NCBI GenBank assembly: GCA_963674965.2
Contig: CAXXFL010000007.1
Coordinates: forward strand, 800,001-864,000
Length of the DNA stretch: 64,000 nt
Direction of reading: 5' to 3'
Source: a bacterium
Lineage (GTDB): Bacteria; RBG-13-61-14; DATKZS01
Below, one piece after another: positions 28,358 to 57,278 of the stretch. The position numbers and the translations under genes are program-made. Below the pieces are notes generated by a model, which saw nothing but the letters and a program-made list of their open reading frames with translations, ran no database searches and had not been told where the DNA came from. How positions within the stretch are numbered: position 1 is the stretch's first letter; every line of letters starts with the position of its first letter.

Positions 28358-28981
28358 ATGAACATCGTACAAAAATATGAGGAAAAATTAAGCGAACAGA
28401 TAAAAAAACACGACGAGCTGATCGAGGCGGCCATCCGCGTGTTCAACGAAAAAGGTTACAGCGCCGCCACTACCGCCGCCATAGCGGCCGAGGCCAAGGT
28501 CAGCGAGCCCACGCTGTACAAGCACGTCAAAAGCAAGCGGGAGCTTTATCTCGAGTGCTTCAAGGTGGTCGAGGCCGAGCTTAACGGCCTGTTCTTAATA
28601 ATCGAAAGGGCCAGCCGGGGCGGCGGCGCGCCGTTTATCAAGCTTCTTATCAGCGAGTACGTGGACTTTGTGGCCGAGAACCCGCACAAGTCCAAGTTCC
28701 TGGTGCATCTTTTCGCGTACCGGGGGGAGAAGGGGTTCGAGGAAACCTTCAACGGCTTCATGGACGGGACCGTATCGAGGATCGAAAAGGCGCTGATCGA
28801 GGCGCGCCAAAGGGGAGAGTTGGCTGAGGGCATCGATCCCTCCGTGCTGGCGGCGGCGTTTTTCAGCCAGTATTTCACCTTGAACGTGCTCGAGTCGGTA
28901 AGGGTCGGCCGGGGCATACCGGTCGAGACGATAAAACGAACCATGGAGCGTATGGCTTCCGGGTTTCTAAATGAAAAATAA
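28358..28981 (+). CDS. TetR/AcrR family regulator
   Basis: LIEAAIRVFNEKGYSAATTAAIAAEAKVSEPTLYKH HTH. Confidence 0.93.
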   Translation: MNIVQKYEEKLSEQIKKHDELIEAAIRVFNEKGYSAATTAAIAAEAKVSEPTLYKHVKSKRELYLECFKVVEAELNGLFLIIERASRGGGAPFIKLLISEYVDFVAENPHKSKFLVHLFAYRGEKGFEETFNGFMDGTVSRIEKALIEARQRGELAEGIDPSVLAAAFFSQYFTLNVLESVRVGRGIPVETIKRTMERMASGFLNEK

Positions 28982-28996
28982 AGGGGAAAGATAATC

Positions 28997-30217: not shown

Positions 30218-30224
30218 GAGCGGC

Positions 30225-31811
30225 ATGGCTGAACATCGAGACAAGTTCATATTGGCGATCGACCACGGAACCTCCGGCGTCAAGACCTCGCTCATGACGA
30301 CCAGGGGGGAGATGGTCGGCCACGAGCGAGAGCCGACCCCCATCCATTATCTTCCCGGCGGGGGCGCCGAGCAGGACCCGGACGACTGGTGGAACGCCTT
30401 GCTCGAGACCGGCGGGCGTTTGATCGGACGGGGCCTGGTCCCGGCGGAGGACGTGGCGGCCGTCTGCGTCTCGAGCACTTTTTCCTCGACCGTGGCCGTC
30501 GATTCCTCGGGCCGCCATCTCATGAACTGTCTCACCTGGATGGATTCCAGGGGCGCTCCCTACATAAAGGAGGTGGTGGGAGGGTTCCCCAGCTTCGACG
30601 GCTATTGCCTGTACAAGATGCTGCCCTGGATTTATAAGAGCGGCGGCGGTCCCCAGCTCTCGGGCAAGGACGACGTGGCCCACGTCCTCTTTATCAAGCG
30701 CGAGAGGCCCGAGATTTACTCGAGGACCCACATGTTCATGGGGAGCAAGGACTACTTGAACCTCCGGCTATCGGGGGAGTTCGCCGCCAGTTACGACTCG
30801 ATGTCCCTCTTCTGGGTGACCAACTCCAGGGACCCCGGCCGGCCTTATTACGACGACTATCTTCTGCGTCTTTCCGGCCTTGACAAAAACAAGCTCCCTC
30901 CCATGAGGCGCTCGATCGACGTACTGGGATATTTAAAGCCCGAGGTGGCCGGCCGATTGGGATTGAAAAAGGACGTCAAGGTGATCGTGGGGTCTCCGGA
31001 CCACCAGGCGGCCTGCGTCGGCTCGGGCGCGGTCCGGGACTTCGAGGGGCACCTTTACGTGGGGACATCCTCCTGGATTCAGTGCGTGGTCCCCTTTAAA
31101 AAGACGGACGTTCTCCACTCGATCGCTTCCCTTCCCACCTCGATACCGGGAAAATACTACTGCGCCAACGAGCAGGACGCCGCGGGCGGGTGCCTGACGT
31201 TCCTGATCGGCAATATCCTTTATCATCGAAACGAGGTCCGCTCGGAGGACCCGCCGGCCGACGTCTTCGAGCGCGTCGAGAAGATCGCCGCCAGGACCCC
31301 CGCGGGAAGCGGCGGGCTGATCTTCACGCCCTGGCTGAACGGCGAGCGGACGCCGGTGGACGACCCGAACGCCCGGGCCGGTTTCCATAACCTGGGACTC
31401 ACCTCCAACCTGGACCACATGGTCCGGGCGGTCCTGGAGGGCGTGGCCTACAACAACCGCTGGGCGCTGGGGTACGTTGAAAAATTCATCGGCCGCAAAA
31501 TGGACGGCCTCAACATGATCGGGGGCGGCGCGCTTTCCCCTTCTTGGCGTCAAATCTTCGCCGACGTGACGAACCGTGAGATACGCCAGATCAAGGACCC
31601 GGTTCAGGCCAACGCGAGAGGGGCTGCCTTTATCGCTTCCGCGGCCCTCGGTTATATCACCTTCGAGGAAATACCGGGCCTGGTAAAAGTGGAGAACGTC
31701 TCGAGACCCGAGCCCGGGAACGTGAAAATCTATAATGACCTCTATGGGGAATTCCTCCAGATTTACCGCCGTAACGCCCCCATTTACAGGCGTCTGAACC
31801 TGAAGAAATAG
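30225..31811 (+). CDS. FGGY-family kinase (xylulokinase-like, substrate unknown)
   Basis: IDHGTSGVK, EQDP, WMDSR, GTS, PWLNGERTP, RAVLEGVA, GGGA. Confidence 0.88.
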   Translation: MAEHRDKFILAIDHGTSGVKTSLMTTRGEMVGHEREPTPIHYLPGGGAEQDPDDWWNALLETGGRLIGRGLVPAEDVAAVCVSSTFSSTVAVDSSGRHLMNCLTWMDSRGAPYIKEVVGGFPSFDGYCLYKMLPWIYKSGGGPQLSGKDDVAHVLFIKRERPEIYSRTHMFMGSKDYLNLRLSGEFAASYDSMSLFWVTNSRDPGRPYYDDYLLRLSGLDKNKLPPMRRSIDVLGYLKPEVAGRLGLKKDVKVIVGSPDHQAACVGSGAVRDFEGHLYVGTSSWIQCVVPFKKTDVLHSIASLPTSIPGKYYCANEQDAAGGCLTFLIGNILYHRNEVRSEDPPADVFERVEKIAARTPAGSGGLIFTPWLNGERTPVDDPNARAGFHNLGLTSNLDHMVRAVLEGVAYNNRWALGYVEKFIGRKMDGLNMIGGGALSPSWRQIFADVTNREIRQIKDPVQANARGAAFIASAALGYITFEEIPGLVKVENVSRPEPGNVKIYNDLYGEFLQIYRRNAPIYRRLNLKK

Positions 31812-32056
31812 CCGGATCGTCGGGAAAGCCAACCCCCGGCCGTCCTCATCGGAACGTCCGGACGCCTATCGTTGTCAAAACTTAAATCGCCGGGTCTGGC
31901 AGTTTTCTCTTGACAGTGAAAATCATTGTTGTACCTTAGTATCAAGGAGAACTGGATTCCAGATTGAAGCTTTTGTTCCGGCGCTCGTTTCAGCTCATGG
32001 CAGTACATATGAGCCGATAAGAACCTCGCCATATTGGCGGTGAAAGGATTACGGTC

Positions 32057-32653
32057 ATGGCCCGGGTAAAAGGAACTATTATTTTGGACTTTGTAAAAAC
32101 CATCAAGGCGGATAAAAGCGGAGCCTATGACGGTTTTCTTAACGAGGAAGACTGGAAAGTTATCAACCAGCGCGTACTCCCAAGTAATTGGTATCCATAC
32201 GAGACTTTCGAGCGGCTCTTCGGCGCCGTGGTCAAGGTCCTGGCCGGCGGCGACATGCATACCGTCCGGCAATGGGGCCGCATCTACGGCGAGGCCATCG
32301 TGACGGGCGTCTACCGGGGGATCATCAAGGAAGGCGAGCCGATGGAGAGCCTGCGCAAGTACGGGACTTACATCCGCAACCTTTTCGACACCGGCGAGCT
32401 CGTCATCCAGCCCATCACCGCAAACGAGGCCGTGCTGACGGCCCGGGGTTTCGATCCCAATTTCGAGCCTCACTATCACATGATGATGGGATGGATCGAG
32501 AGGTCCCTCGAGCTTTGCGGGGCCCAGGACATCAAGATGGATTTCGTTTCCAAGTCCTGGCTCGGGGACAAGGAGACGAAATTCAGCGTCCGCTGGCGTG
32601 AGCTTCCCGCCTTCGTGCCGCCCACCAAGGGCATGGTCAAGGAAAAAGGCTGA
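32057..32653 (+). CDS. Conserved hypothetical protein (myxobacterial DUF2378/V4R-like)
   Basis: AAGGA RBS; own promoter TTGACA 31910 and TACCTT 31932; VKG....F, LPSNWYP, GW..R.LELCGA, F.VRW pattern. Confidence 0.6.
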   Translation: MARVKGTIILDFVKTIKADKSGAYDGFLNEEDWKVINQRVLPSNWYPYETFERLFGAVVKVLAGGDMHTVRQWGRIYGEAIVTGVYRGIIKEGEPMESLRKYGTYIRNLFDTGELVIQPITANEAVLTARGFDPNFEPHYHMMMGWIERSLELCGAQDIKMDFVSKSWLGDKETKFSVRWRELPAFVPPTKGMVKEKG

Positions 32654-32674
32654 TCCGATCGCCTGAGGCAATGC

Positions 32675-32712
32675 GCCTCTCCCGGTCTCGGGGCCGGGAG
32701 AGGCTTTTTTTT
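32675..32712 (+). terminator. Intrinsic terminator
   Basis: gcctctcccggtc-tcgg-ggccgggagaggc followed by T8. Confidence 0.85.
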
Positions 32713-34483
32713 ATCGGCGGGGAATGATGGGCAGCACTATCCGCGACGGGTGGTCCGGGTCGTGATAGATGACCTGGTTGGCCTCGACGGCGCGGGTGGC
32801 TCCGGGGACCGGCTCGCCGGTGTTGAGGTTCCGGTTAAACCGCGGGAAGTTGCTGCTCGAGACCTCGACCCTTATCTTGTGGCCCGCCATAAAAAGGTTC
32901 GAGGTCGCCCACAAGTCGATCTCGTACTCCTCGATCTCACCCGGCGTAACCGGGGTGGGGCTTTCCGGGTCGTTGTCCCTGAACATGGCCCGGACCACGC
33001 CGTCCTGGATATTGATGGGCCGGCCATCGGGATGAACGTCCACCAGCTTGACCGTGAAGTCCGTGTCCAGGGCGCTGGTCTTGGCGTAGATGACGGCCTT
33101 GATCGGTCCCGTCACCTCGACGTCCCTCGAGAGCATGGGCGTGGTATAGCAGAGCACGTCCGAGCGCTTTTCCGCCTTGCGCTGGTCGTAGGCCCCCAGG
33201 TTGAGGCCCAGGTTGTTTCCGCCGTAGGTGGGGACCGGGTCGAGCGGGTCGTAGATGAACACGTCGGGGGTCTCCTGGGTCTCGGGCGGCTCCTCGCTCA
33301 AGAGCCCGTCTCCCTCGCCGGTGTTGGCGTGTCCGTCCGAGCGGAAGTAAAAATCCGTGTACTTCGTCCGCTCGAGGGGCCACTCCTTCTCGTCTCGCCA
33401 CACGTTCTCGCCCATCACGAAAATCCTGACCCGGGGCCAACTCGGCACGTCGTTCTCGATGCCCTTCAGATGATAATCGAACCATGACAGCACGTGGGCG
33501 GGGCCGAGCGCGTTCTTTTGCCTGGCCTCCTTGCCGTACTCCATGACTCCGTCCTTGCCGTGGCCCCAGGGGCCGACGATCAATATCGAGTCCCTGGCCT
33601 TGCCCTGGCCCTGGGAGACGATCTTCCGAAAGTCGGAAAGCTGCGGGCCCAGGAACATGTCGTACCAGCCCGCCACGAAGACCGCGGGGGCCGAGACCTG
33701 GGAGTAGCGGTCCTCGAAGTTTACCGATTCGTACACCTTCATTATCTCCGCGGGATCGAGGGCCTGGTTGAAATACTCGACGTCCCGGCCCACCTTGTCG
33801 TCGGCCTGGTCCAGGGGAAGGGTCTTGGCGTAATGGTCGAGCCGCTGGAGCTTCATGGCCACGAGGGGATTGAACCTTCGGCCTCCCATCATGACCGACC
33901 AGAAGTAGACGGTTTGAAGGTGGAGCTCGCCTCCCGTGTACATGACCTCCCGAAGGTCAGGGCTGGTCACGGCCAGGTGCATGGCCCCTATCTCCTGGCC
34001 CGGCGCCGAGAACCACTGGGTCGTGCCCAGGTAAGACCCGCCGTACGTGCCCAGGCGGCCGTCGAACCACGGCCGCTCGCGAATCCAGTTCATGGTCTCG
34101 ACCCCGTCGGGACCGTCATGGATAAAGGGATAGAATTCTCCCTCCGACTTGAACCTGCCCCGGACGTCCTGCTTGACCACTATATACCCGCGCCTCACCA
34201 GAAGGTTGACGGTTTTATCGTAGCCGGAAATGCCCTTGCCGTAGGGGGTCCTTATCAGGATGACGGGGGCCTGGTCCAGGCCCACCGGAGAATAAACGTC
34301 CGCGGCCAGGCGGACCCCGTCGCTCATGGGGATCATCACGTTGGACTGTTTCTTGACCAGGTACTCGGGCTTTCTAAGACGCGGCTTCTTGCTCTTTAAC
34401 TTGAACTTGGCGCAGGAGCCGGACGCCATGGCGACAATGACGAGCAAGAGGGCCGCGTTCCGAAGGCGTTTATTTTGGATCAT
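32711..34483 (-). CDS. CocE/NonD family serine hydrolase, probable lipoprotein
   Basis: IPMSDGVRLAADVY, RTPYGK, QDVRGRFKSEG, GGSYLG (nucleophile), GWYD, GPWGH, SSSNFPRF.RN; signal ending ASGS-C. Confidence 0.92.
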   Translation of the reverse strand: MIQNKRLRNAALLLVIVAMASGSCAKFKLKSKKPRLRKPEYLVKKQSNVMIPMSDGVRLAADVYSPVGLDQAPVILIRTPYGKGISGYDKTVNLLVRRGYIVVKQDVRGRFKSEGEFYPFIHDGPDGVETMNWIRERPWFDGRLGTYGGSYLGTTQWFSAPGQEIGAMHLAVTSPDLREVMYTGGELHLQTVYFWSVMMGGRRFNPLVAMKLQRLDHYAKTLPLDQADDKVGRDVEYFNQALDPAEIMKVYESVNFEDRYSQVSAPAVFVAGWYDMFLGPQLSDFRKIVSQGQGKARDSILIVGPWGHGKDGVMEYGKEARQKNALGPAHVLSWFDYHLKGIENDVPSWPRVRIFVMGENVWRDEKEWPLERTKYTDFYFRSDGHANTGEGDGLLSEEPPETQETPDVFIYDPLDPVPTYGGNNLGLNLGAYDQRKAEKRSDVLCYTTPMLSRDVEVTGPIKAVIYAKTSALDTDFTVKLVDVHPDGRPINIQDGVVRAMFRDNDPESPTPVTPGEIEEYEIDLWATSNLFMAGHKIRVEVSSSNFPRFNRNLNTGEPVPGATRAVEANQVIYHDPDHPSRIVLPIIPRR

Positions 34484-34622
34484 TCATGTCTCCCCGGCCG
34501 AATTTTCGGCTGTTGGTAATCAGTCGATTATCGAAGGCCAGTCCCCCGATGTCAAGAAGAAACCGTCGGGGCGCCGGATCAGGAAACCGACGCCCCGCTT
34601 AAGCGCTCGATATCCTTACCGA

Positions 34623-35288
34623 TCAGTCCTCCTTGGTCCAGGTCCCTCCCGACTCGATCCGTTTCTTGATGTTGATTACCACGGTCGGCAGGTCCTTCGA
34701 GGTCAGGTAGTTCTGCACCATGCTCGGGACCTTGAGGCCAGTCTCGACCTTGGTGGCCGCGTAGGTGATAAGGGTCTTCTTCTCGTCGACCTTCTCGAAA
34801 TGGAAATAGCCGGCCGTGTCCTTCAGGTCGTGGGGGTAAGAAGGGTCCATCTCGAAATCGACCCGGTGGTTTTTCTCGTCCTTCACGTACTTGACCGTGT
34901 ACTCGATGGTTATAAGCGAGAAGTCGAACTCCTTGTGCACCCAGGAAACTTCCCCCTCCGTCTTGACCACGTCGCTTTTGGTCTTGCGGGGAAAATAAAG
35001 CTGGTGCTTGTCGTACTGGCAGAAAATCTTGAAGGCCTCGTCAATGGGCGCGTCGATCAAGGCCGACGACTGGCCGTGGCCGTGAAGCTTGCCGTCCTCC
35101 CCCTTCTCCTCGACGTGCTCGTAGATGGCCTCGCCGGCCAGGAGCTTTTCCTTTTGCTCGGGCGTGAAGCGGGCGAGAGGCGACTCCTCGGCCGCGGCCC
35201 CCGCCTCTTTTTCCGCGTCGCCTGGGCGCGCCATAAGGGGCAGGGCCAGTGCCAACAGTAACGCAAGCAGTATAGATTTAATCTTCAT
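34623..35288 (-). CDS. Exported SRPBCC/START-like (polyketide cyclase/lipid-binding fold) protein
   Basis: GAGGA RBS, Sec signal; IDAP...F.....YD....YFP core and C-terminal helix. Confidence 0.7.
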   Translation of the reverse strand: MKIKSILLALLLALALPLMARPGDAEKEAGAAAEESPLARFTPEQKEKLLAGEAIYEHVEEKGEDGKLHGHGQSSALIDAPIDEAFKIFCQYDKHQLYFPRKTKSDVVKTEGEVSWVHKEFDFSLITIEYTVKYVKDEKNHRVDFEMDPSYPHDLKDTAGYFHFEKVDEKKTLITYAATKVETGLKVPSMVQNYLTSKDLPTVVINIKKRIESGGTWTKED

Positions 35289-35315
35289 CTTTGTCCTCCT
35301 TGGGCGAAGGGCGGC

Positions 35316-36518
35316 TTACAGATGCTCCGCCGCCTTGACCATCAACGTTTCGTTGGTCCCGTCCATTATCTTAAGAAGGTAGGCGTCGCGGGCGAACTTT
35401 TCAACGGGATACTCCTTGGAGATGCCGTATCCGCCCAGGACCTGGACCATCTCGGCCGTGTGTTTGGCCGCCATCTCCGTGGCGAAGACCTTGGCCGCCA
35501 GGCTGGTCTTGAGGTCGCCGGGAAAATTCTTGGTCGCGAGCCAGCTCCCTTTATAAAGGAAGGTCCGCGAGGCCTCGATGGCCTGGTGGCACTCGAAGAG
35601 CTTCTTGGCGATGAGCTGGTGCTTGAAGATGGGGGCCCCCCATTGGACGCGGTTCTTCGAGTGCTCGAGGGCGTACTCGAAGGCCCCCCTCATCAGCCCG
35701 ACGGCGATGTAGCCCACGCCCAGGTTGCCCACCGTGATAATCGAGTTGTGCAGCATGGGATAGAGCTCGCCGGGAGGGAAGATCATCCACTCCTCGGGGA
35801 CCTCGACCTCGTCGAAGAAAACGGCCGACTGGTTGAGCGCCCGAAGCCCGATCTTGTCGATGGACCTGCCGGTTGTGAGGCCGGGGGTATCGGCCGGAAG
35901 CACGAAGGCGCCCGAGCCCTTGATCCCCAGCGACGGGTCCACGCAGCCGAACACGATGTAAGAGTCGGCTATCCCGCCGTTGGAAACGAAGTCGGACTTG
36001 GTACCGGTCAGATAAAATTTCCCGTCCTTTTTCCTGGCGTCCGTGTGGTGGCGCACGTTTTTGTCGTAATAGTTTTTCCCGTCCGAGCCCACCTCGGGCT
36101 CGCTGCTGCACCAGGCGGAAATCTTTTTCCCCGTCGAGTCCTCGCAATAGGGGGTGACGAAGCGCTCCACCAGGTCCTTCCTGTCCGGGGCCAGGAAGGC
36201 CACGAGCTGGGGGACCACCGCGCCCGGTATGAGGGTCGAGACTACGCCGGGGGCCCACCTGGCCAATTCCTCCCACACCAGGCCGATGGTTTGGGGATCG
36301 AGGCCCAGCCCGCCCATGTGCTCGGGTATGGCCATCTTGTTAAAGCCCAGCTCGAAGGCCTGGCCGATGACGCCCCAGAAGCGGTCACTTTTAAATACCT
36401 GCTCGGGGCTGGCCATGAGGTCCAACTCGACCTCGGCCGGACCGGCCACTTCCTTTCCGAAGTCGTGGGCCGTGTCCATCATCAGTCGTTGAGTTTCGGT
36501 CGGTTCGAAGTCGATCAT
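35316..36518 (-). CDS. Acyl-CoA dehydrogenase family flavoprotein
   Basis: IPE.MGGLG, SEPEVGSD, L.GTK..VSNG, DKIGLR, RVQWGAPI..HQ, QVLGGYG...EYPVEK..RDA, IMDGT. Confidence 0.92.
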   Translation of the reverse strand: MIDFEPTETQRLMMDTAHDFGKEVAGPAEVELDLMASPEQVFKSDRFWGVIGQAFELGFNKMAIPEHMGGLGLDPQTIGLVWEELARWAPGVVSTLIPGAVVPQLVAFLAPDRKDLVERFVTPYCEDSTGKKISAWCSSEPEVGSDGKNYYDKNVRHHTDARKKDGKFYLTGTKSDFVSNGGIADSYIVFGCVDPSLGIKGSGAFVLPADTPGLTTGRSIDKIGLRALNQSAVFFDEVEVPEEWMIFPPGELYPMLHNSIITVGNLGVGYIAVGLMRGAFEYALEHSKNRVQWGAPIFKHQLIAKKLFECHQAIEASRTFLYKGSWLATKNFPGDLKTSLAAKVFATEMAAKHTAEMVQVLGGYGISKEYPVEKFARDAYLLKIMDGTNETLMVKAAEHL

Positions 36519-36533
36519 TTCACGCTCCAGTCA

Positions 36534-37298
36534 TTATCCGGTGAAGAAGTCGGTGATCTTGAAGTAATAAGGAAGATAGGAGTCGGCGTCCACTTCCTTT
36601 ATCACCGAGCCGGGCCTCATAACGTTGTCGCTCTCGAGGTAGAAGGCCACGTTGACCTTTTCGATCTCGATCTCGGCCCAGGGGTCGTCCTCCGATTCCC
36701 GGAGGGATATCTCGGCGCTCCCTATTTCCAGGCTCTTCATGTCGATGTCCGTCTTTTGCCGGCAAAGCAGGACGGGACCGTCGAAGCCGGGCTGAAGGTC
36801 TATGCGGGGCATGGCCTTGAACAGGAAGTTGGGGCCCGTGTCCGGCATGGCGGGCAGGCTTCCCGACAGGTCGGCCTTGATCTCGACGAACCTTACGCCG
36901 TGCCTCTCGACCCAGCCGCGGACCTTGTTCCCGTTCTTCTCCAGCCCGATGGACGCCATCTTCTTGGGATACCCGAAGATGTCGCGGCCGTTGTACAGGC
37001 GGCTCTCGAGGCTGTCGATGGGCATGGCCAGGCAGTAGCTTCCGCCCTCGTCACCGTACTTGCACCGCAAAAACAACGCGGCCTCCCGATAGCCCGGACC
37101 CAGGTTGGTCTCGGGATACCGGGCGATGAACATCATGCCCGCGGGCGCGTCCGCCGGCTCGAGCGGCGGCGGCAGAAGCCGCTTGACTATCTCCGGCCTG
37201 GTCTCGAACATGACTCCCAGCATGTTCGCGCCAATGAACTTCCTGTCCCCGAACCCGTAATAGGCGTCAAGCTCCTCTTTCGTCTTTGTAAAACCCAT
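36534..37298 (-). CDS. Acetoacetate-decarboxylase-superfamily protein
   Basis: LLPPPLEP, Y.EAAL, GRDIFGYPKK with putative Schiff-base Lys; GGAGG RBS. Confidence 0.85.
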   Translation of the reverse strand: MGFTKTKEELDAYYGFGDRKFIGANMLGVMFETRPEIVKRLLPPPLEPADAPAGMMFIARYPETNLGPGYREAALFLRCKYGDEGGSYCLAMPIDSLESRLYNGRDIFGYPKKMASIGLEKNGNKVRGWVERHGVRFVEIKADLSGSLPAMPDTGPNFLFKAMPRIDLQPGFDGPVLLCRQKTDIDMKSLEIGSAEISLRESEDDPWAEIEIEKVNVAFYLESDNVMRPGSVIKEVDADSYLPYYFKITDFFTG

Positions 37299-37356
37299 TT
37301 AAAACCTCCCTCTCGGCCCGGCGGAAATTCTTTCTCTTAGGGCCGCTCGATAATTT

Positions 37357-39162
37357 CTATGAAAACCTCTTGAATATCCCCATCCGGCTCGACTGGGCGA
37401 ACAGCACCGCCCGCTCCAGGAAAGTCGGAGAAATCCTGTATACCGTTGCTCCCAGCTTGCCCACCGGCGTCATGATGAGCCGGGCTTTTCTTTTGAGGAG
37501 CATGTTCACGATCTGGTCGGCGGCCTGGGCCTGGCCGTGGTGGGCCGGCCGGTCGGGAAGCACGAGCGAGCCGTCCGCCGCCAGAATCCTCTTTTCCGGG
37601 TCATGCTCGGTAAACCCGAGATAGACGATGCCCACGTGCATGCCCTTTGGCAGGAGCTCGAGGCGAAGGGACTCGGTGAGTCCGGTCAGGGCCTTCTTGG
37701 TGGCGCAGTAAACCGACGCCCCCGGCAGTCCGAATATCCCGGCTATACTGGAGATGAAAACCAGGTGTCCCTTTGCCTCGGCCAGGTGGGAGATGGCCGC
37801 CTTGGACACGTTGACGCACCCGTCGTAATTCGTGCGCCCCACCCTCTGGCAGACCTCGGGCGACAGCTCGATAAAGTGGCCGCGCATGGACACGCCCGCG
37901 TTGTTGATAACCACGTCCAGCCGTCCATAGTTCGATATGGCCGTCTCCACCATGGCGGCGGCGTCCTTGTAATCTCCCACGTCCCCGGTGACCGCGACCA
38001 CGTCCCGTCCCAGCCTTTTCAGCTTTTGCTTCGAGTCCTCAAGGCGTTCCCGACCCCGGGCCGTCATCACCACCCTGGCCCCCCGCAGGGAGAGGGCGCG
38101 GGCCGCGGCAAAGCCGACTCCCCTGCTGGCGCCCGTTACCAGGGCGACCTTGCCCTTGAAATAATCCGTCCCGGAAAACTCGAGGTGTCCATACTCCAGC
38201 AGGGACTTGACCGACTCCTCGATGGCCGTCTCCACCGGGGCGTGCGTCATGCCCAACTCCTTCATGGCCTTGCCCGAGTCGTAATAGGTCCCCATCGCGG
38301 CCAGTTTGGCCATTACGCGGTTGAGCACGGCCTTTTTGCCCGAGACCTTCTCGTAGGCCGAGGCCGCCTCCCCGGCCAGCCGGAGCGCGGGGGCCGGCAT
38401 GATCCGGCTGGGCGCGGCCGTTCCCACCACCTTGGCCACGCGGGTGAAGAAGTCCATGTAAGTCAGGTTGTGGCCGCCCAGGATATAGGTCTCGCCCTTC
38501 CTTCCTTTTTCCCACGCCGCGAAAGCCGCCTTGCTCACGTCCGGCGCGTAGGCGAAGTTCCTTCCCCCCGGCGAGGTCACGGTCAGGCCCTTAACGATGA
38601 ACTGCCTTATCAGCTCGCCTCCGCTGGGCCTCGAGTCGTAGGGCCCGAGCAGGAAAGTGGGCGTCACGATCACCGCGTCCAGGTCCTTTTCCCGAACGGC
38701 CTTCCTGACCAGCTCGGCCGCCTTGTGTTTGGACTCCATGTAGGCCACGCCCTTGTATCCCTCGGGAAACCCCGAGGTCTCGCCGGCCGGTTTCTCGATG
38801 GAGCCAGGCTCGAAGGAACTGGCCGAGCCCACGAAAACCAGCCGGCCCGCGCCGGCGGCCAGGCAGGAATCCACTACCCTCTCGGTGGCCTCCAGATTGA
38901 CCTTCCAGGTTATCTCGGGCGAGGCCCACATGTCGGTGATGGCGGCGCAGTGGAAGACACCGTCGCATCCGTTCATAAGGCCGGCCAGGTCCAGCCCGCC
39001 GTCCAGCAGGTTGCCCTCGAGGCGCTCCATGGGCAGGCCCTCCAGGGTGGGCGTTTTAATTCCCGGCAGGATCAGCGCCTTAACCTCGTGTCCCGCCCCT
39101 AAAACGTCGCGGACGAGGTTCGACCCGAGCAGGCCGTCCGCTCCCGTAATGAAAAATTTCAA
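37357..39162 (-). CDS. Two-domain fusion: extended SDR (epimerase/3-beta-HSD/HpnA-like) plus classical SDR
   Basis: N-half TGADGLLG, FHCAA, YMESK; C-half TGASRGVG, NNAG, SSIAG, YCATK; single frame, TTG start with GGAGG. Confidence 0.88.
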   Translation of the reverse strand: MKFFITGADGLLGSNLVRDVLGAGHEVKALILPGIKTPTLEGLPMERLEGNLLDGGLDLAGLMNGCDGVFHCAAITDMWASPEITWKVNLEATERVVDSCLAAGAGRLVFVGSASSFEPGSIEKPAGETSGFPEGYKGVAYMESKHKAAELVRKAVREKDLDAVIVTPTFLLGPYDSRPSGGELIRQFIVKGLTVTSPGGRNFAYAPDVSKAAFAAWEKGRKGETYILGGHNLTYMDFFTRVAKVVGTAAPSRIMPAPALRLAGEAASAYEKVSGKKAVLNRVMAKLAAMGTYYDSGKAMKELGMTHAPVETAIEESVKSLLEYGHLEFSGTDYFKGKVALVTGASRGVGFAAARALSLRGARVVMTARGRERLEDSKQKLKRLGRDVVAVTGDVGDYKDAAAMVETAISNYGRLDVVINNAGVSMRGHFIELSPEVCQRVGRTNYDGCVNVSKAAISHLAEAKGHLVFISSIAGIFGLPGASVYCATKKALTGLTESLRLELLPKGMHVGIVYLGFTEHDPEKRILAADGSLVLPDRPAHHGQAQAADQIVNMLLKRKARLIMTPVGKLGATVYRISPTFLERAVLFAQSSRMGIFKRFS

Positions 39163-39208
39163 TTGTCCTCCTTCTCTTCTTTTGGCCGACGCGATATTTC
39201 CGGACGTC

Positions 39209-40117
39209 TCATCCGTGGATTACGACGGGAAAACCGCGATCCATAAAAATCGACTCGATCCTTTTCAGGTCATCCTCCCCGAGCTTTCCCCTGTCCTCGA
39301 AGTCCCCCGACCTTCCAATCCGATCGTATTTTCCCCTGGCCCACGAGTGATAGGGCATCACGCGCGCGTCGCCCTTGTAGCCCGAGTCCGCCAGAAAGGC
39401 GGCCATGCCCTCGAGGTCCTCCGTCGAGTCGTTATAGCCGGGCACCACGGGAAAACGCGGCATGATCCCGCCGCTTCCTTTCAGGGCCAGGAGGGCCTTG
39501 AAGTTCTCGAGTATCAGAGAGTTTTCCACCCCCGTTCCTTCCTTGTGCCGGTCAGGATCGACGTGCTTCAAGTCGAACAGGACCACGTCCATGGCCTCGG
39601 CGATGGGCTTTGCCAACTCCTTTTTGAAGAACCCGCAGGTCTCGATGGCCAGGTGAACGCCCTTCTCACGGAGCGCCGCCGCCGAGGCCAGCATGAAGTC
39701 GGCCTGATAGGTCGGCTCGCCGCCGGTAAAGGTCACCCCCCCGCCGGAGCGCTTGAAAAACGGCTCGTCCAGCATGACTTGACTAACCAACTCCTCCACT
39801 TCCATCTCTTTGCCTATCTTCTCCAGGGCCCCGGTCGGACAGGCGCGGGCGCAAACGGCGCAGGACTCGCAAACGCTCCGGTCCCGCGCGAGTTTGCCAT
39901 CCACCATGCCGATGGCCGAGTTCGGGCAGACCTCGGCGCATTTGAGGCAGCCGGCGCATTTTTCCGCGTTATGCGACATCTCCGGCAATTCCCCCTGTCC
40001 CTCCGGGTTATGGCACCAGAAACACGAAAGAGGGCAACCCTTCAGGTAGACCGCCGTCCTTATTCCCGGCCCGTCGTAAATGGCGTACGACTGTATATCG
40101 AAGACGATGCCTTTCAT
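39209..40117 (-). CDS. Glycyl-radical enzyme activating enzyme (radical SAM, with 2x[4Fe-4S] insert)
   Basis: DGPGIRT, GCPLSCFWCHNPE, CAGCLKCAEVCP, CESCAVCARACP, GGGVTFTGGEP. Confidence 0.95.
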   Translation of the reverse strand: MKGIVFDIQSYAIYDGPGIRTAVYLKGCPLSCFWCHNPEGQGELPEMSHNAEKCAGCLKCAEVCPNSAIGMVDGKLARDRSVCESCAVCARACPTGALEKIGKEMEVEELVSQVMLDEPFFKRSGGGVTFTGGEPTYQADFMLASAAALREKGVHLAIETCGFFKKELAKPIAEAMDVVLFDLKHVDPDRHKEGTGVENSLILENFKALLALKGSGGIMPRFPVVPGYNDSTEDLEGMAAFLADSGYKGDARVMPYHSWARGKYDRIGRSGDFEDRGKLGEDDLKRIESIFMDRGFPVVIHG

Positions 40118-40162
40118 AAATCCGCCCTCCCTCCAGCGGGGAAGGCTTACCCCAAATGAGTC

Positions 40163-42775
40163 TTAATGCTCGGTCCTGGCGATTATCTCGTCCTGGACGT
40201 CCCTTCCCAGTTCCACGAAATAGGAACTGTAGCCGCCGATCTTGACTATCAGGTCCCGGTATTCGTCCGGGTTCTCCCGGGCTTTACGGAGGTCATCGGC
40301 CGAGACCACGGTCGGCTGTATCTGCGCCCCTCCCATCGAGAAATACGTCCTCATCAGGTCGGCCCACTTTTTTCTGGCCTCCTCGTTGAGGCCCACGCCG
40401 GTGGGATGGAATTTCACGTTCACCGCGCATCCCATCACGTCCTCATAGGGGAGGGCCGATATCGAGCGCAAAGCGGCGGTGACCCCGTTTTTCTCGACGT
40501 TGTAAGGATTGCAGCTCGCGGCGTAGGGCGTGGCCGCCCTCCTGCCGTCGGGAGAGGCTATGGAAAGCCTTCCGTCCACCGTGTGGGTTATCATGCTGAT
40601 GATATAAATGACGACGGGCCCGCCGGCGAAGGACCGGTAATCGTAGCTCATGTCGAAGATGCGTTTCATCACGTCGTGAGCCATGGCGTCGGTTTCCGGG
40701 TCTCCGTTCCCCCATTTCCCGGGAAGTTGCTTGATTTTAGCCAGCAGGTCCTCATGGCCCTTGTAGTTAATATCCATGGCCTCCATCAGTTCGCCTATGG
40801 TGACGTCCTTGTTCTCGTAGACAAGCTTCTTGATCACGTAGAGGGAGTCGATCATGTTGGCGATCGAGTTGATGGTGGACACGCCGGCGAACACGTATTT
40901 GCCGCCCCCATTGGTGATATCGCGGCGCTTTTCCAGGCAGTCCTGGACAAAGGCTGAGAGCATGGGGGCGGGTAGGCTCTCGGCGAAAATCCGGTCCCTG
41001 ATGTTTGACCCCTCCACTATCTTGTCCATGAAGAACCTGGCCTGCTTGTAGAGGGCCTCGAGGAGTTCGTCGAAGTCCTTAAAGGATTTCGGGTCTCCCG
41101 TGGCTGGACCGTCTCCCTTGATGGTCCCCGCCAGTATGCGGGAGTCCCCGTTCCGGAGGGTTATATCCAGGAGCCTCGATAACTGAAGCGCGTTGGCGCT
41201 CATGGGCCCGGTCTTGCCCGGGCAGGTGGTCTCGACGCAACCCATCACCGCGTAGTCCCTGGCGTCCTCCAGGCTGAAGCCCCGGTTGACCATGGACTGG
41301 ATATTCATCTCATCCGAGAACAGGGAAAAGGTGCTCGTGCCCTTGGCCGCGTACTCGGCCGTCTGGAAAAGGACCCGGTCGGGCGTCTTCTCGTGCACCC
41401 TGACCGACACGTTGGTAATGGCCTTGGACAAGTGGGCCGCCTCGAGGAATACATAGGTCAGCTCGTTGGAGGCGTCCTCCCCCTCGGGCGTGATCCCGGC
41501 CAGGGTGATGGGCGTGGAACCCAGGAAACGGTGATAGAAGTTGCTTAAGATGTTCGACTCGGGACGGATGTTCTGGGACATGACCTTGAGCAGAAGCTCG
41601 GCCAGAAGCTCGACCGCCCATTCCCTGGTGACTCGTCCCTCGCCGAGGTCCTTTTCATAAAAGGGGTACAGTACCTGGTCCATACGGCCGAAGCAATGCA
41701 GGTAAACGGGATGGGCCGTCTCGATGGCCGTCTTCAGCGTCCAGCAGGACTGCACGGCCTCCTCGAAGGTATCCGCCGCCTGGAGGGGGACCTTGCGGCA
41801 TATCTCGAGCATGCGCCTGAGACGGGCCTTGTCATCGTCGTCCCTCGCGGCCTCGAGGTCCCTCTCGAGGCGGCCGGCCAGGCGGCGGGCGTAGATCATC
41901 ACGCCCTCCACGGCTATATCGATGGACTTGAGGAATTCTTTTTCCTCATCCGCCAGACCCTCGCCCTGGCCCAGGAGTCCCTCTATCTCGCGCTTGATGG
42001 ACTCGAGGCCCCGGCCCAGGACGGGGCCGTAATCCAGGATGATATGGGCGTGGTAGCTGGCGATGGTGGCGCAGGTGGAGAGCATGATGACCTGGCGCGA
42101 GGTATTGCCGGGTATGGCCATGACGAAGTCCCGCATCTGCTCGGAGAGAAGGCCCGACTCGAGCAGTTCCTTTTCAATGAGGTCCACCGTGGTCTTGCCC
42201 TTCCAATAGGGAAGGAGCCTCGAGAGCATCTCCTTTTTATCCTTCTCCTTGATCTGGTAGGGGTTGATGGACCGCTCCGACATGGTCTTGAAATCCATGT
42301 TGAGGGGAGCCGTCCCGCTTTCGCGCGTCATTTTCTGGTTGCGGATGAATTCACCCAGCATCCTTTTTCTGGTCATGTATCCTATGCCCTTGGCCATGGT
42401 CTTGGCCCTGAACTTGACCATGCTTATCTTGTCCAACTCCGACTCGAGCACGGAGTTGAAAACGCCCCTCTCGATATCGATGGGAACGCCGAGGAAATAC
42501 TCGCACCAGTAGCCGGCTATACGGTCGTCGGGGTCAACGTAATGGGTCATCTTCTCGTAGACGTTCTTCATGGCCATGGCCACGCGGACGGGCGTGGAAA
42601 TGCCTTTGCCCTCGGTCGCCTTCCAACTCTCGGTGTAGTACCTGGCCCGCTCGACCGAAATGTAAGCGGGACCGGTCTGGTATTTTCTTCTCATGCGCCT
42701 TATGCGCTCGGCGCCGTCATTTTGCTTTTGCCCGGAGGAGATATCGTCCATTTTCATTACCGGCTGGCTGGCCAT
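40163..42775 (-). CDS. Glycyl radical enzyme (PFL superfamily) of unknown substrate
   Basis: ERARYYTES, GRMDQ.LYPFY, VMGCVE (thiyl Cys), KWGN, ASPDGR, C-terminal PDEYRDLIVKIGGYSSYF..QDEIIART. Confidence 0.93.
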   Translation of the reverse strand: MASQPVMKMDDISSGQKQNDGAERIRRMRRKYQTGPAYISVERARYYTESWKATEGKGISTPVRVAMAMKNVYEKMTHYVDPDDRIAGYWCEYFLGVPIDIERGVFNSVLESELDKISMVKFRAKTMAKGIGYMTRKRMLGEFIRNQKMTRESGTAPLNMDFKTMSERSINPYQIKEKDKKEMLSRLLPYWKGKTTVDLIEKELLESGLLSEQMRDFVMAIPGNTSRQVIMLSTCATIASYHAHIILDYGPVLGRGLESIKREIEGLLGQGEGLADEEKEFLKSIDIAVEGVMIYARRLAGRLERDLEAARDDDDKARLRRMLEICRKVPLQAADTFEEAVQSCWTLKTAIETAHPVYLHCFGRMDQVLYPFYEKDLGEGRVTREWAVELLAELLLKVMSQNIRPESNILSNFYHRFLGSTPITLAGITPEGEDASNELTYVFLEAAHLSKAITNVSVRVHEKTPDRVLFQTAEYAAKGTSTFSLFSDEMNIQSMVNRGFSLEDARDYAVMGCVETTCPGKTGPMSANALQLSRLLDITLRNGDSRILAGTIKGDGPATGDPKSFKDFDELLEALYKQARFFMDKIVEGSNIRDRIFAESLPAPMLSAFVQDCLEKRRDITNGGGKYVFAGVSTINSIANMIDSLYVIKKLVYENKDVTIGELMEAMDINYKGHEDLLAKIKQLPGKWGNGDPETDAMAHDVMKRIFDMSYDYRSFAGGPVVIYIISMITHTVDGRLSIASPDGRRAATPYAASCNPYNVEKNGVTAALRSISALPYEDVMGCAVNVKFHPTGVGLNEEARKKWADLMRTYFSMGGAQIQPTVVSADDLRKARENPDEYRDLIVKIGGYSSYFVELGRDVQDEIIARTEH

Positions 42776-42801
42776 GTTCCTACCCCCTTGAAAGAAATTT
42801 A

Positions 42802-43410
42802 TTAAACCGATCGTCCCTTTTCTATCGCCTCGATGGTCAAGTCCAACATTTTAAGGACATGGGCTTTTCTTCTTTTCAGCTCGTCCGACGAGAGCGGGTC
42901 GCGGTCGAGGAGTATCTCGAGCACGCCGCTATAGGTGAACCAGGCCGTGATTATCCCGTAGAAGCTCACGAACACGTGCTCCGCCGCCAGGTCCCCTTCC
43001 TTGGTCGCGGGAAGGGCCGCCTGAATTATTTCCATGCCCATCCTGAACATGGGGTTGAGGTTCCGGGCGATACGGCCCACGTTTTTGCCGCCCGAGCTTT
43101 CCCTTTGCACGATGCGGGAGAAATTTCTGTTTTGCGAGAGGAAATCGACGTAGGTATCGACCATGATGGCGAGCTTTTCTCTCAAGGTGGCCTCGGTTTG
43201 AAGGGCTTTCACCAGGGTCTCGCCAAGCCTTTCGTAGTAGCCGTCCAGCACGGACTCGAAAAGACCCTGCTTGGTTTTAAAGTGGTAATGGATGAGGGCC
43301 TTGTTAACGCCAGAGGCTTCGGCGATTTCCCTGGTGGTAGCGGCGTCGAAGCCGATATCTCCGAAGATTTTATCTGCCGCCCGCAGGATATCTTGTTTGG
43401 CGTTGATCAA
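42802..43410 (-). CDS. TetR/AcrR family regulator, first gene of the GRE operon
   Basis: ILRAA...F...GFDAATTREIAEASGVNKALIHYHF; GGAGG before TTG. Confidence 0.93.
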   Translation of the reverse strand: MINAKQDILRAADKIFGDIGFDAATTREIAEASGVNKALIHYHFKTKQGLFESVLDGYYERLGETLVKALQTEATLREKLAIMVDTYVDFLSQNRNFSRIVQRESSGGKNVGRIARNLNPMFRMGMEIIQAALPATKEGDLAAEHVFVSFYGIITAWFTYSGVLEILLDRDPLSSDELKRRKAHVLKMLDLTIEAIEKGRSV

Positions 43411-43422
43411 TGGCGCCTCCGA

Positions 43423-43485
43423 ATTTAACTAACCGCCCAGTTAAATATTTAGACTTACGTTAGCACGCCATATGGAACATGTCAA
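43423..43485 (-). promoter_or_regulatory. Sigma70 promoter and TetR-type operator of the GRE operon
   Basis: Minus strand TTGACA (43485-43480), 17 nt, TAACGT (43462-43457) with TGn; perfect IR ATTTAACT-N8-AGTTAAAT at 43423-43446 just downstream. Confidence 0.75.
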
Positions 43486-43567: not shown

Positions 43568-43785
43568 AAGCCCGAAGGGCTTTAACATGAGTAACCGTAG
43601 GCGCCAGCCTACGGGAGGCGTGGCCGGAAATTTCTTCCCCGCCCCTGAAAGGGGCGAACCTTGCCGGGCGTAGGCAGTACACTTCGCCGAGGGTCCGGCC
43701 CGTTCAGGGCCGAAGGAAATTTTACACGCCATCTTTTCCGTAGGCTGGCGCCTACGGCTATTCGAATTTCCCCCTTTCAGGGGGA
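43568..43785. repeat. REP-like mirrored hairpin array
   Basis: CCGTAGGCGCCAGCCTACGG (43595-43614) and its exact reverse complement (43738-43757), each flanked by CCC-(t)gaa(a)-GGG-type hairpins (43568, 43641, 43696, 43769). Confidence 0.75.
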
Positions 43786-43939: not shown

Positions 43940-45145
43940 TCAGGCCCAGTTATCCAGTATCTCGTCGATCCGGGCCACGTTGGCTTCCTCAATGGATATC
44001 CTGGAAGAGACGGCCTGGCCGATGCCCAACTCGGCGGCGTAATAGATTTGCGGCTGGGACCACACGCTCTTATCGACGTAGGGACGGTCCACCTTATCGT
44101 CCGAAGCGTACAGCTTAAGCGCCGATAAAGCCACCGAGTCAGTGGCCACCCGGTCCTTCCCCGCCAGGATCAGCCTCGGCTTGGCCCATACGACGCCGTC
44201 CCGCTTGGGGAAAAGTCCCATGCCGCTGGCGAGAGCGCCCGCGTCGGGACCGCACCGGGTAATAATAGTGGTGGCGTCCACAACGTTGATAAGCGGCCTG
44301 GAACATAGGTTCAATTCCGCGATCTTTTCGCCGATGTTATTCTGATGCATCGCGTTTTTTCCCTCTTGTAGCCTGTCGATGGGCATGCAGATTCCCACGA
44401 AGGCCTTGAGGCAGCAGGTGTATTCGGCGGCTGTAACGTCGTGGTTCTTGAGCATGGGCGCGTTAATCCAGTGATCCACCTCGCTTAGTATGCCGGGCAT
44501 ATGGAAACCTTCGCTCCAATGGCGCTGGCCCGGCTTGAAAAGCTCGTACTTGGATCTGGTAAAGGGGAAGGCTATTGCCCCCTCCTCTTGACAAATCTTG
44601 GCAAAGCCGCACTTTACAAAGGCTTTTTCAGTTTGATAGGCCGAGCGGTCCCCCACCAGCGCCGTTGCTCCGCGCTCTTTTACCATCCTGACTATCGCTC
44701 GAACCACGTCGGGTTTGGTCGTGATCCTGCCGATATCGAGCCCGCCGTCCGACGGCCCGCACATGTTGGGCTTGATCAAAACGCGCTGGCCCGGCTTTAT
44801 CTCGTCTATTCCCCCGGCCGCCTCGACCGACTCCCGGACCGCTCTCTCAATGTCCTTATAGTCAAGGTATTCGCCCGAGACTCGTTTCACCTGGGAGAGC
44901 CCGACCTTGGCGGGGGGCATTTCAGGATAAACGCCGGTTGGCGGTAGAGGATCTGGACCGACCAGGGTGGTTGTTCCATCCGGACCGTATACGGCTTTGA
45001 CCCGATTATAGAAGTTGACCGGCTCGATACCCTTTTGCTTGGGTAAAAAACATCCCGCCGAGGCCAGCCCGAATATTCCGGCCGACGAGGCGGCCCGGAA
45101 AAAGGAGCGCCTGGTAAAATCCGCGTTGCGGAGAATATGCCTCAT
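43940..45145 (-). CDS. DUF362-domain protein with Tat signal, probable lipoprotein
   Basis: TRRSFF..LASAG-C; VLIKPN, TTKPDVV, INAPMLKNH, D.VA.D. Confidence 0.8.
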   Translation of the reverse strand: MRHILRNADFTRRSFFRAASSAGIFGLASAGCFLPKQKGIEPVNFYNRVKAVYGPDGTTTLVGPDPLPPTGVYPEMPPAKVGLSQVKRVSGEYLDYKDIERAVRESVEAAGGIDEIKPGQRVLIKPNMCGPSDGGLDIGRITTKPDVVRAIVRMVKERGATALVGDRSAYQTEKAFVKCGFAKICQEEGAIAFPFTRSKYELFKPGQRHWSEGFHMPGILSEVDHWINAPMLKNHDVTAAEYTCCLKAFVGICMPIDRLQEGKNAMHQNNIGEKIAELNLCSRPLINVVDATTIITRCGPDAGALASGMGLFPKRDGVVWAKPRLILAGKDRVATDSVALSALKLYASDDKVDRPYVDKSVWSQPQIYYAAELGIGQAVSSRISIEEANVARIDEILDNWA

Positions 45146-53632: not shown

Positions 53633-53641
53633 TTTCCTTTC

Positions 53642-54979: not shown

Positions 54980-55031
54980 TTGCTAACTCCTCCTTAAATA
55001 TTCCTCCCACGTGTTTCCAATTACCTTTGGC

Positions 55032-57242: not shown

Positions 57243-57278
57243 GGCAAATACCTCCTTTTCTTTTTATCAGGCTAAGCC

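Follow-up and report, generated by a model that had tools for sequence, protein, structure and literature searches.

Glycyl radical enzymes (GREs) form a superfamily whose enzymology advances through the assignment of functions to unassigned clades. A 2026 review, cited here throughout from its available part, lists the characterised GRE eliminases and isomerases and leaves whole clades, as well as all archaeal PFL-like GREs, without an assigned function (PMC13450708). A C-x-E motif in the Cys loop has been defined for the GRE 1,2-eliminases and isomerases, and His164 of glycerol dehydratase (GD) acts as the proton donor for the leaving hydroxyl (PMC13450708). Here, we examine a GRE gene and its neighbors in a 64,000-nucleotide stretch (the window; positions 800,001 to 864,000 of contig CAXXFL010000007.1, assembly GCA_963674965.2) of the genome of a bacterium of the lineage RBG-13-61-14. 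On sequence grounds, this GRE is a member of an uncharacterised clade in the PFL2/eliminase branch, and its operon probably encodes a hitherto undescribed anaerobic breakdown pathway. On balance, we consider it likely that the locus is a TetR-autorepressed catabolic operon for a hydroxylated compound, centered on a 1,2-eliminase of this clade; the single downstream steps are proposed with much lower confidence. An earlier reading of the stretch (the original prediction) had described a TetR-controlled GRE locus with conserved neighbors, which stands, and had also assigned a role to a CocE-type esterase and proposed a lipid-, sterol- or sphingoid-type substrate, neither of which is upheld.

The GRE (870 aa; 40163-42775, minus strand) matches the PFL-like domain PF02901 at 469.6 bits and the Gly_radical domain PF01228 at 72.4 bits. 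Its placement relative to characterised GREs was determined from NCBIfam cut-offs and comparisons with the PDB. The best NCBIfam model is the subfamily TIGR01774 (PFL2/GD), at 488.5 bits against a cut-off of 678.2. The equivalog models score lower (score/cut-off): HypD (NF043068) 437/1100, HpsG (NF048011) 435/1000, CutC (TIGR04394) 379/1050, HpfG 376/1000, PflD-type 357/1109, IAD 300/1100, HPAD 261/1150, and PFL 85/994. The best PDB sequence match is HpsG (353 bits), with eliminases and isomerases at 285-353 bits, the arylacetate decarboxylase 7e7l at 278 bits, and HPAD, BSS, and MASS at 171-188 bits. An AlphaFold model built from 28 clade members (predicted local distance difference test [pLDDT] 82.9; predicted template modeling score [pTM] 0.88) resembles HypD, GD, CutC, 1,2-propanediol dehydratase (PD), HpsG, IseG, HplG, YbiW, and PflD, with template modeling (TM) scores of 0.77-0.90 at 25-28% identity; identity to the decarboxylases and X-succinate synthases is 20-24%. 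All reviewed eliminases and isomerases with a solved structure are among the PDB matches, and HpfG, which has no structure, is represented by an NCBIfam model. Thus, the cut-offs, the PDB comparisons and the review agree with the original prediction in placing the GRE outside the isofunctional groups of characterised enzymes. The host genome (G000) carries four more GRE genes (C4:364076-366562, C6:214736-216826, C7:971428-973344, and C6:1021089-1023194), which are 30-37% identical to the GRE studied here and none of which reaches an NCBIfam equivalog cut-off.

The GRE possesses the barrel and glycyl domains, the fingerprint Gly and the catalytic Cys of the superfamily together with a cognate activase, and formation of a glycyl radical is predicted. 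In an alignment of the 28 clade members (57-72% identity), the Cys loop G512-C513-V-E515-x-T-C518 has an invariant Cys513 and an invariant Cys518 (28/28), and position 515 is Glu in 25 members and Asp in three. The glycyl loop K845-I-G-G848-Y-S (K-V/I-G-G-Y-S across the clade) aligns with the RVAGYS of GD, HypD, and HpsG; Gly847, Gly848, Tyr849, and Ser850 are invariant, and Lys845 replaces Arg in all 28 members. His244, also invariant, aligns with GD His164. The activase, a radical-SAM enzyme (302 aa; 39209-40117, minus strand; TIGR02494, 315.8 bits against a cut-off of 174), is encoded 45 bp downstream of the GRE gene and has a CPLSCFWC (CX3CX2C) motif and two ferredoxin-like cluster motifs, the conservation of which was checked in 40 homologues.

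The substrate pocket was mapped by pairwise alignments (about 27% identity), with residue roles taken from the review and from the available part of a HypD structure paper (PMC13450708; PMC7077986). GD His281 and Ser282 correspond to Asn (Tyr) 358 and Leu359, and GD Asp447 to Ala527. For HypD, Ser334 aligns with Tyr414, Asp339-Phe340 with Gly419-Ser420, Tyr450 with Ala529, Thr645 with Met728, and Asp278 with the same Asn/Tyr358. The position of HypD Ser334 is Phe in most eliminases and corresponds to CutC Phe389 (PMC7077986), by which route CutC Phe389 maps to Tyr414. The counterparts of HpsG Arg183, Gln187, and Arg672 are Ala239/Ser240, His244, and Ile725. Asp216, Phe395, Thr502, and Tyr506 of the CutC site presumably correspond to His244, Ser420, Ser526, and Leu530, as placed by offsets from the catalytic Cys. 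Of the residues that distinguish GD/PD, CutC, the sulfolyases, and HypD, the GRE retains only the equivalent of GD His164. As judged from these alignments, it keeps the general acid/base pair of the dehydratases and none of the residues with which GD, HypD, CutC, and the sulfolyases clamp their substrates. Sulfonate lyase and carnitine/choline-type trimethylamine lyase functions, considered in view of the HpsG best match and of TauE-type and methyltransferase neighbors, were rejected on the pocket alignment.

Arg416, in the β2-β3 segment, is invariant in the clade. Because the pocket has small residues where eliminases of C2-C5 compounds have bulky or polar ones, and because of this Arg416, the substrate is probably larger than C3 and anionic. 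We infer that the GRE catalyses a 1,2-elimination on a hydroxylated substrate of larger size and probably anionic character, the leaving group of which is most likely an oxygen function; the radical dehydration or deamination envisaged in the original prediction would fit the C-x-E loop and His244.

All eight genes that were originally described are present on the minus strand, between 43485 and 32711. The first encodes a TetR-family repressor (202 aa; 42802-43410, minus strand; TetR_N, 59 bits), with a TTG start and a GGAGG sequence 5 nt upstream. From this gene through that for a START-like protein, the intergenic gaps are 26, 45, 46, 58, 15, and 27 bp, in line with the tightly packed, co-oriented gene string originally reported. 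A putative sigma-70-type operon promoter (43457-43485, minus strand) consists of a perfect -35 element, TTGACA (43485-43480), a 17-nt spacer, and a weak -10 element, TAACGT (43462-43457), as read from the sequence. Because the -10 element matches at three of six positions, the promoter is missing from the list given by a consensus scan, and the description of it as clean was too strong. Between the -10 element and the GGAGG/TTG start of tetR is a perfect 8+8 palindrome of 24 bp (43423-43446; ATTTAACT-N8-AGTTAAAT; 100% complementary), the presumed TetR operator. It occurs once in the window and was matched in none of 100 shuffles.

The exact operator with variable spacing (TTTAACT-N6-10-AGTTAAA) matches only the window's own locus, so a looser motif, TTAACNGGNCGNNNNGTTAA, was used for other loci. 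Among 103 loci scanned, the looser motif was present only in the window's locus and in L004 (duplicate L044), L009, L077, and L088, in every occurrence 22-45 bp upstream of the tetR start. TetR homologues of 48-59% identity adjoin the GRE in 21 of 73 non-redundant related loci, and the motif is found in four of the 21 other non-redundant TetR-bearing loci, the remainder being without such a motif. The recurrence of TTAACNGGNCGNNNNGTTAA upstream of tetR in four other loci backs autoregulation through the palindrome: it supports a model in which TetR would autoregulate the operon via 43423-43446, and the putative TetR control of the original prediction is strengthened to that extent.

Upstream of tetR, the 530-bp spacer that separates it from a DUF362 gene (43940-45145, minus strand) contains two copies of a perfect hairpin, CCGTAGGC-N4-GCCTACGG (43595-43614 and 43738-43757), which look like a REP-like repeated palindromic element. 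The DUF362 protein has a twin-arginine-type N-terminus (RRSFFRAAS) and a 52%-identical paralogue elsewhere on the same contig; its gene was rejected as a member of the module, having no counterpart in any related locus.

Conservation of the neighborhood was assessed across relatives of the GRE. A word-indexed protein search, in which 8000 candidates were scored, gave 412 proteins with E ≤1e-50, the best 120 of which are 58-73% identical to the GRE (self match excluded). Loci were taken from species genomes (23) and metagenomes (67) and searched by tblastn with the window proteins, and duplicates were removed. The clade set comprises 73 non-redundant loci with a GRE at least 54% identical, 23 of which have at least 6 kb on both sides (flanked loci). 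Among JGI metagenomes, 273 of the 316 stretches that match two clade-specific peptide patterns encode a relative. By record titles, the clade loci belong to Myxococcota, Gemmatimonadota, Thermodesulfobacteriota, Planctomycetales, Phycisphaerae, Helarchaeota, and Promethearchaeota. A clade orthologue is present in 11 of 12 other species genomes of the host's class; none of 28 unrelated genomes sampled has a GRE at clade-level identity.

Both members of a pair of short-chain dehydrogenases/reductases (SDRs) are found in 21 of the 23 flanked loci (among all 73 loci, the extended SDR in 48 and the classical SDR in 40). An acetoacetate decarboxylase (ADC)-like protein is encoded in 15 flanked loci (35/73), an acyl-CoA dehydrogenase (ACAD)-fold protein in 14 (31/73), the activase in 12 (36/73), and TetR in 10 (21/73). 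The complete six-gene core is present in nine of the flanked loci and in 19 of all 73. Gene order is shuffled (for example, ADC-ACAD-TetR-GRE-activase-SDR-SDR), with the pairs extended SDR-classical SDR, ADC-ACAD, and GRE-activase staying together. Conservation of the neighbors, as originally claimed, thus extends across phyla.

The 601-aa SDR fusion of the window (37357-39162, minus strand) joins an extended SDR (residues 1-324) to a classical SDR (residues 335-590), and the two halves are fused or adjacent in 40 of the 40 non-redundant loci that hold both. The extended half is HpnA/aldehyde-flavonoid-reductase-like (HpnA, 205 bits against a cut-off of 368; 3Beta_HSD, 47 bits) and has the motifs TGADGLLG (GxxGxxG) and YMESK, conserved in 44 homologues; the classical half has TGASRGVG (TGxxxGxG), NNAG, and YCATK, conserved in 39 homologues. 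The ADC-like protein (254 aa; 36534-37298, minus strand; PF06314, 166.9 bits against a cut-off of 29.8) has true ADCs as its only PDB sequence matches. Lys115, Lys116, Glu76, and Arg29 have catalytic roles in clostridial ADC; these residues of true ADCs align with Lys112, Lys113, Glu72, and Arg19, which are conserved in 36, 33, 36, and 33, respectively, of 36 homologues. Schiff-base chemistry is plausible, given that the catalytic lysine is invariant.

The ACAD-fold flavoprotein (400 aa; 35316-36518, minus strand) contains three ACAD domains and aligns over its full length with butyryl-CoA dehydrogenase (1BUC), with IMDGTNE opposite IYEGTNE. In all 31 homologues compared, Asp386 stands where a catalytic Glu is expected, and the (I/Y)-E-G-T of canonical acyl-CoA dehydrogenases reads M-D-G-T-N-E here. 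Because of this Asp, the protein may not be an ordinary dehydrogenase, and we class it as ACAD-fold. According to the available part of PMC12440821, a catalytic Asp marks ACAD10, ACAD11, and LvaC, which eliminate phosphate from 4-phosphoacyl-CoA. The HCMR motif of ACAD10/11 reads G-L-M-R here by inspection, and the best NCBIfam match is acryloyl-CoA reductase (177 bits against a cut-off of 640).

A scheme for the pathway can be outlined from these predicted activities. TetR would bind the 24-bp palindrome over the transcription start and be released by the substrate or an intermediate. The activase would place the radical on Gly848, whereupon Cys513 would take a hydrogen from the carbinol carbon of the substrate; Glu515 would accept the hydroxyl proton, and His244 would protonate the adjacent leaving group, most likely an oxygen function. 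This 1,2-elimination, probably of a C-O bond in a mid-sized hydroxylated anion, would yield a carbonyl product. The paired SDRs could carry out redox changes at hydroxyl and carbonyl groups, either ahead of the radical step or following it, and the ADC-type enzyme might decarboxylate a β-keto acid, or otherwise handle a ketone, via a Schiff base at Lys112. A thioester would be the substrate of the Asp-type ACAD-fold flavoenzyme, which may catalyse an elimination, as ACAD10/11/LvaC do, instead of a simple dehydrogenation. Where present, the exported SRPBCC protein may serve to capture the substrate.

Several observations weigh against this scheme. The C-x-E motif is also present in arylacetate decarboxylases; the model of the GRE has pLDDT <50 at the Cys loop (514-523) and at 728-761; and the pocket map depends on pairwise alignments at the low identity given above. 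In the classical SDR, the second strand is followed by an Arg (TAR), which among SDRs is suggestive of NADP(H) and so perhaps of a reductive or biosynthetic function. Glu61 of clostridial ADC aligns with Met in the ADC-like protein. CoA ligases and CoA transferases are outside the conserved set, with an AMP-binding enzyme in only three loci, and this scarcity weakens the thioester steps. Planctomycete-type loci hold only the GRE, the activase, and the SDR fusion within 10 kb, and the Asgard loci carry the ADC-like protein, the GRE, and an MtaA-like protein, with SDRs and ACAD absent within reach. The C-x-E motif is found in GRE isomerases as well (PMC13450708). Because the motif is shared beyond the eliminases, elimination is the most likely reaction class, with other classes possible.

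One such possibility is that the GRE is a decarboxylase, or catalyses a wholly new reaction, with the Lys-for-Arg glycyl loop and Cys518 marking a different chemistry. The invariance of Lys845 and Cys518 in all 28 clade members would suit this, as would the equal distance of the clade from all eliminases and the wider distribution of C-x-E in isomerases and decarboxylases. However, HypD also has a Cys at +5 of the Cys loop, and the comparisons favor the eliminases and isomerases (285-353 bits; 25-28% identity) over the decarboxylases and X-succinate synthases (171-278 bits; 20-24% identity), so that we regard a non-eliminase as unlikely.

A further alternative is that the module is biosynthetic and tailors a self-made lipid or cofactor-like metabolite. 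Its near-universal presence in the host's class (11 of 12 relatives) and the NADP-type Arg of the classical SDR are consistent with this, and SDR, ACAD, and SRPBCC proteins are typical tailoring families. Catabolism is favored instead by a TetR repressor dedicated to the operon, the operator of which overlies the promoter, by a conserved set that contains no carrier protein, ketosynthase or ligase, by accessory genes that are shuffled and variable across phyla, and by the catabolic nature of all characterised PFL-like GREs (PMC13450708). A biosynthetic role is accordingly given a low probability, and we retain the catabolic operon as the preferred reading.

Other genes recur around the clade GRE less frequently. 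When the flanking open reading frames (ORFs) of about 80 loci were clustered and then checked against Pfam, a TauE/SafE (TSUP) membrane protein was found in 10 loci (8 non-redundant; 87-121 bits), and an EamA-like membrane protein in 10 loci, with weak Pfam scores of 25-31 bits around the cut-off of 28.2 and one representative without a match. A fusion of HMG-CoA_red_N and URO-D domains (MtaA-like) stands beside the GRE in nine of the 73 loci, one of them a flanked locus.

The host genome also encodes this MtaA-like fusion, alone and on another contig (G000:C3:318728-320458, minus strand = L036:9726-11459; 577 aa). It is 73% identical to the GRE-linked copies, combines an HMG-CoA-reductase-N-like domain with a divergent MtaA/URO-D domain, and has a best PDB match of only 27 bits, hence no close solved relative. 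The Asgard loci (L014:5043-16581; L003, L005, L085) begin with a TrmB regulator, a second GRE, a FAD_binding_4 protein, and the ADC-like gene, and continue with the clade GRE, the HMG-CoA_red_N+URO-D fusion, a corrinoid protein, an MtaA-like protein, and another corrinoid protein; in L003, a CCG protein is added beside the FAD_binding_4 protein. The second GRE in these loci is 44% identical to the C4 GRE copy of the host genome. A sister GRE clade (L016-L022; seven loci, 48-51% identical) occurs in Dehalococcoidia, Thermodesulfobacteriota, Promethearchaeota, and Zymogenaceae, often as a tandem GRE-GRE-activase arrangement without SDR, ADC, or ACAD partners; L019 adds URO-D-like, corrinoid, and MtaA-like genes.

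These neighbors bear on the possibility that the GRE is an ether lyase, with an alkoxide or aryloxide rather than water as the leaving group. Candidate substrates would be 1-O-alkylglycerol or archaeol-type lipid ethers, lignin-type β-aryl ethers, or methoxy-alcohols, and the partner enzymes would finish the resulting aldehyde or ketone and alcohol. The GRE isomerases YbiW and PflD use the same ketyl chemistry to break the C-O bond of a ring ether (PMC13450708), His244 could protonate an alkoxide, and the small residues at 419, 420, 527, and 529 suggest space for a large substituent. The exported SRPBCC ligand binder (8/73 loci) and the acryloyl-CoA reductase match of the ACAD, far below its cut-off as stated, are further points in its favor. 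The MtaA-like URO-D fusion (9/73) and the corrinoid proteins of the Asgard loci and of one Dehalococcoidia paralogue locus would fit methyl-ether metabolism. On the other hand, this proposal is inferential throughout, and the partner families are all generic; the TauE/EamA-type small-solute membrane proteins of some 18-20 loci fit lipids poorly; the invariant Arg416 suggests an anionic substrate; and a literature search on ether cleavage and glycyl radicals yielded, among the 15 papers listed, none with the term 'glycyl radical'. An ether lyase is therefore rather unlikely, and the fuller version, in which the clade would be the first GRE ether lyase, expelling the alkoxide or aryloxide by ketyl-radical 1,2-elimination, and in which an ADC-type Schiff-base enzyme and an Asp-type ACAD catalysing β/γ-elimination instead of dehydrogenation would process the product, has a similarly small chance of being correct. 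If true, the substrates would be glycerol-ether lipids of necromass or lignin-type/methoxylated ethers, with corrinoid methyltransferase coupling in some lineages, including Asgard archaea, and the clade would provide a previously unknown anaerobic route for very abundant, recalcitrant ether-linked carbon. A 1,2-elimination, probably of a C-O bond, in a hydroxylated anion remains the reading we prefer.

The last two genes of the original eight encode an SRPBCC/START-like protein (221 aa; 34623-35288, minus strand) and a CocE/NonD-family hydrolase (590 aa; 32711-34483, minus strand; TIGR00976, 416.5 bits). As read by eye, the N-terminus of the former is signal-peptide-like, and that of CocE (...MASGSC) is signal-peptide-like and lipoprotein-like. 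The START-like protein matches PF10604 weakly (20.1 bits, under the cut-off of 27.4) and no NCBIfam model; its ESM-Atlas neighbors are SRPBCC clusters (0.96-0.98), which we take as a lead only. SRPBCC homologues lie 3' of the ACAD gene in eight of the 73 loci (2 of the 23 flanked loci), seven of them with a hydrophobic N-terminus.

A terminator-like hairpin, GGGGCGTCGG-N9-CCGGCGCCCC (34568-34596, minus strand), with 9 of 10 positions paired, separates the START-like gene from the CocE gene, as the original prediction had noted; it is followed by a T-rich stretch and is absent from an automated scan because its 9-nt loop exceeds the scan's loop limit of 8. Directly behind it is a promoter-like site, TTGACA-17-GATAAT (34527-34555, minus strand; 11/12 in the consensus scan), which had not been described. 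With the hairpin and a promoter-like site of its own, CocE looks like a separate transcription unit, a neighbor gene outside the conserved module. It adjoins the cluster in none of the 73 related loci (0 of the 23 flanked loci), and the genome contains four further CocE paralogues.

The original model, in which an ester-linked lipid, sterol or sphingoid would be freed outside the cell by CocE, bound by the START-like protein, redox-adjusted, radically dehydrated or deaminated, and converted to an acyl-CoA, is consequently very unlikely. The export-type N-termini of CocE and the START-like protein are compatible with it, as are the 3Beta_HSD and HpnA matches of the extended SDR and a CrtC/lipocalin-like gene in one related locus. 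Against it are the absence of CocE from the related loci, its apparently separate transcription and its paralogues, the restriction of the exported SRPBCC protein to 8 of the 73 loci, and the small-solute-type membrane proteins (TauE/TSUP or EamA-like) that about 18-20 loci carry instead.

Just 3' of the CocE stop codon is a strong GC-rich hairpin of 13 pairs with a T run (32675-32704), likely a terminator that separates the CocE unit from a convergent one (28358-31811, plus strand), which encodes, in this order, a second TetR, a saccharopine-dehydrogenase-like protein, and an FGGY sugar kinase. A saccharopine-dehydrogenase-like gene is also located 3' of the SRPBCC gene in the related locus L051. 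An ORF downstream of CocE (31784-32671, minus strand), considered as a TauE/EamA-type transporter, lacks hydrophobic segments, resembles nothing in the neighbor set, and was judged spurious. Elsewhere in the window, two minus-strand regions (52739-60243 and 62424-63983) encode CdhC/ACS β, two CdhD, a pterin-binding protein, DUF3786, and a NuoF-like protein; the acetyl-CoA synthase/CO dehydrogenase genes point to a strictly anaerobic host that has a Wood-Ljungdahl pathway. A plus-strand region (2742-14333) encodes eukaryote-like repeat proteins: two ankyrin-repeat proteins, and leucine-rich repeat (LRR), FHA, and WD40 (536 and 1470 aa) proteins.

The clade is large. Its members come from many uncultured anaerobes across a range of bacterial phyla as well as from Asgard archaea, and almost all sampled relatives in the host's class have one. 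The combination of coupled SDRs, an ADC-type decarboxylase, and an Asp-type ACAD is seen in no characterised GRE pathway, and literature searches on the partner combination, Asgard GREs, recent GRE work, the ADC superfamily, and GRE ether cleavage returned nothing on the cluster; one paper on limonene was set aside as concerning, in its available part, a fumarate-adding enzyme (PMC12583861). Knowing the substrate would bring a new anaerobic reaction into the carbon cycle of sediments and digesters and assign a first function to an archaeal PFL-like GRE. Ligand screening could start directly from the conserved TetR operator.

Compared with the glycerol and 1,2-propanediol dehydratases (1R8W, 5I2G, 9RCO), the GRE has the same barrel (TM 0.79-0.90), the Cys-x-Glu loop, an invariant His244 at the position of His164, and a dedicated activase next door. 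Identity, however, is only 26-28%; Asp447, His281, and Ser282 of GD become Ala, Asn/Tyr, and Leu; the glycyl loop is K-V/I-G-G-Y rather than R-V-x-G-Y; and residue 90 is followed by an extra segment of about 70 residues. Its partner enzymes are two SDRs, an ADC-like protein, and an Asp-type ACAD rather than an aldehyde/alcohol dehydrogenase. As originally reported, there is no microcompartment, the shell domain PF00936 being without a match in the 97.6%-complete genome while control genomes were positive, and neither an aldehyde dehydrogenase nor a small GRE subunit was detected among the scanned window ORFs of at least 100 aa.

The C-S-cleaving enzymes HpsG, IseG, and IslA (6LON, 5YMR, 7KQ3) include the best PDB match, HpsG, and TauE/SafE-family proteins recur beside the present module; yet the Arg, Gln, Arg sulfonate clamp of the sulfolyases (PMC13450708) is replaced by Ala/Ser, His, and Ile. 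HypD, HplG, YbiW, and PflD share the C-x-E loop, and HypD shares the wording GCVET-x-C, but identity is 25-27%, and Asp278, Asp339, Ser334, Tyr450, and Thr645 of HypD are not conserved; the YbiW/PflD/HplG isomerases show that the family is able to cleave ether and amine C-X bonds (PMC13450708). ACAD10, ACAD11, and LvaC, the last likened by its published description, have in common with the ACAD-fold protein an Asp at the catalytic-base position; they differ in that no kinase partner or domain is present here and in HCMR reading GLMR. Finally, the ADC-like protein shares with the clostridial and Chromobacterium ADCs (3BH2, 3BGT) the fold family, the Schiff-base Lys, the adjacent Lys, and equivalents of Glu76 and Arg29, but scores only 27-50 bits against solved ADCs and has Met at the position of Glu61; its gene is always beside the ACAD gene in bacteria and beside the GRE gene in Asgard archaea.

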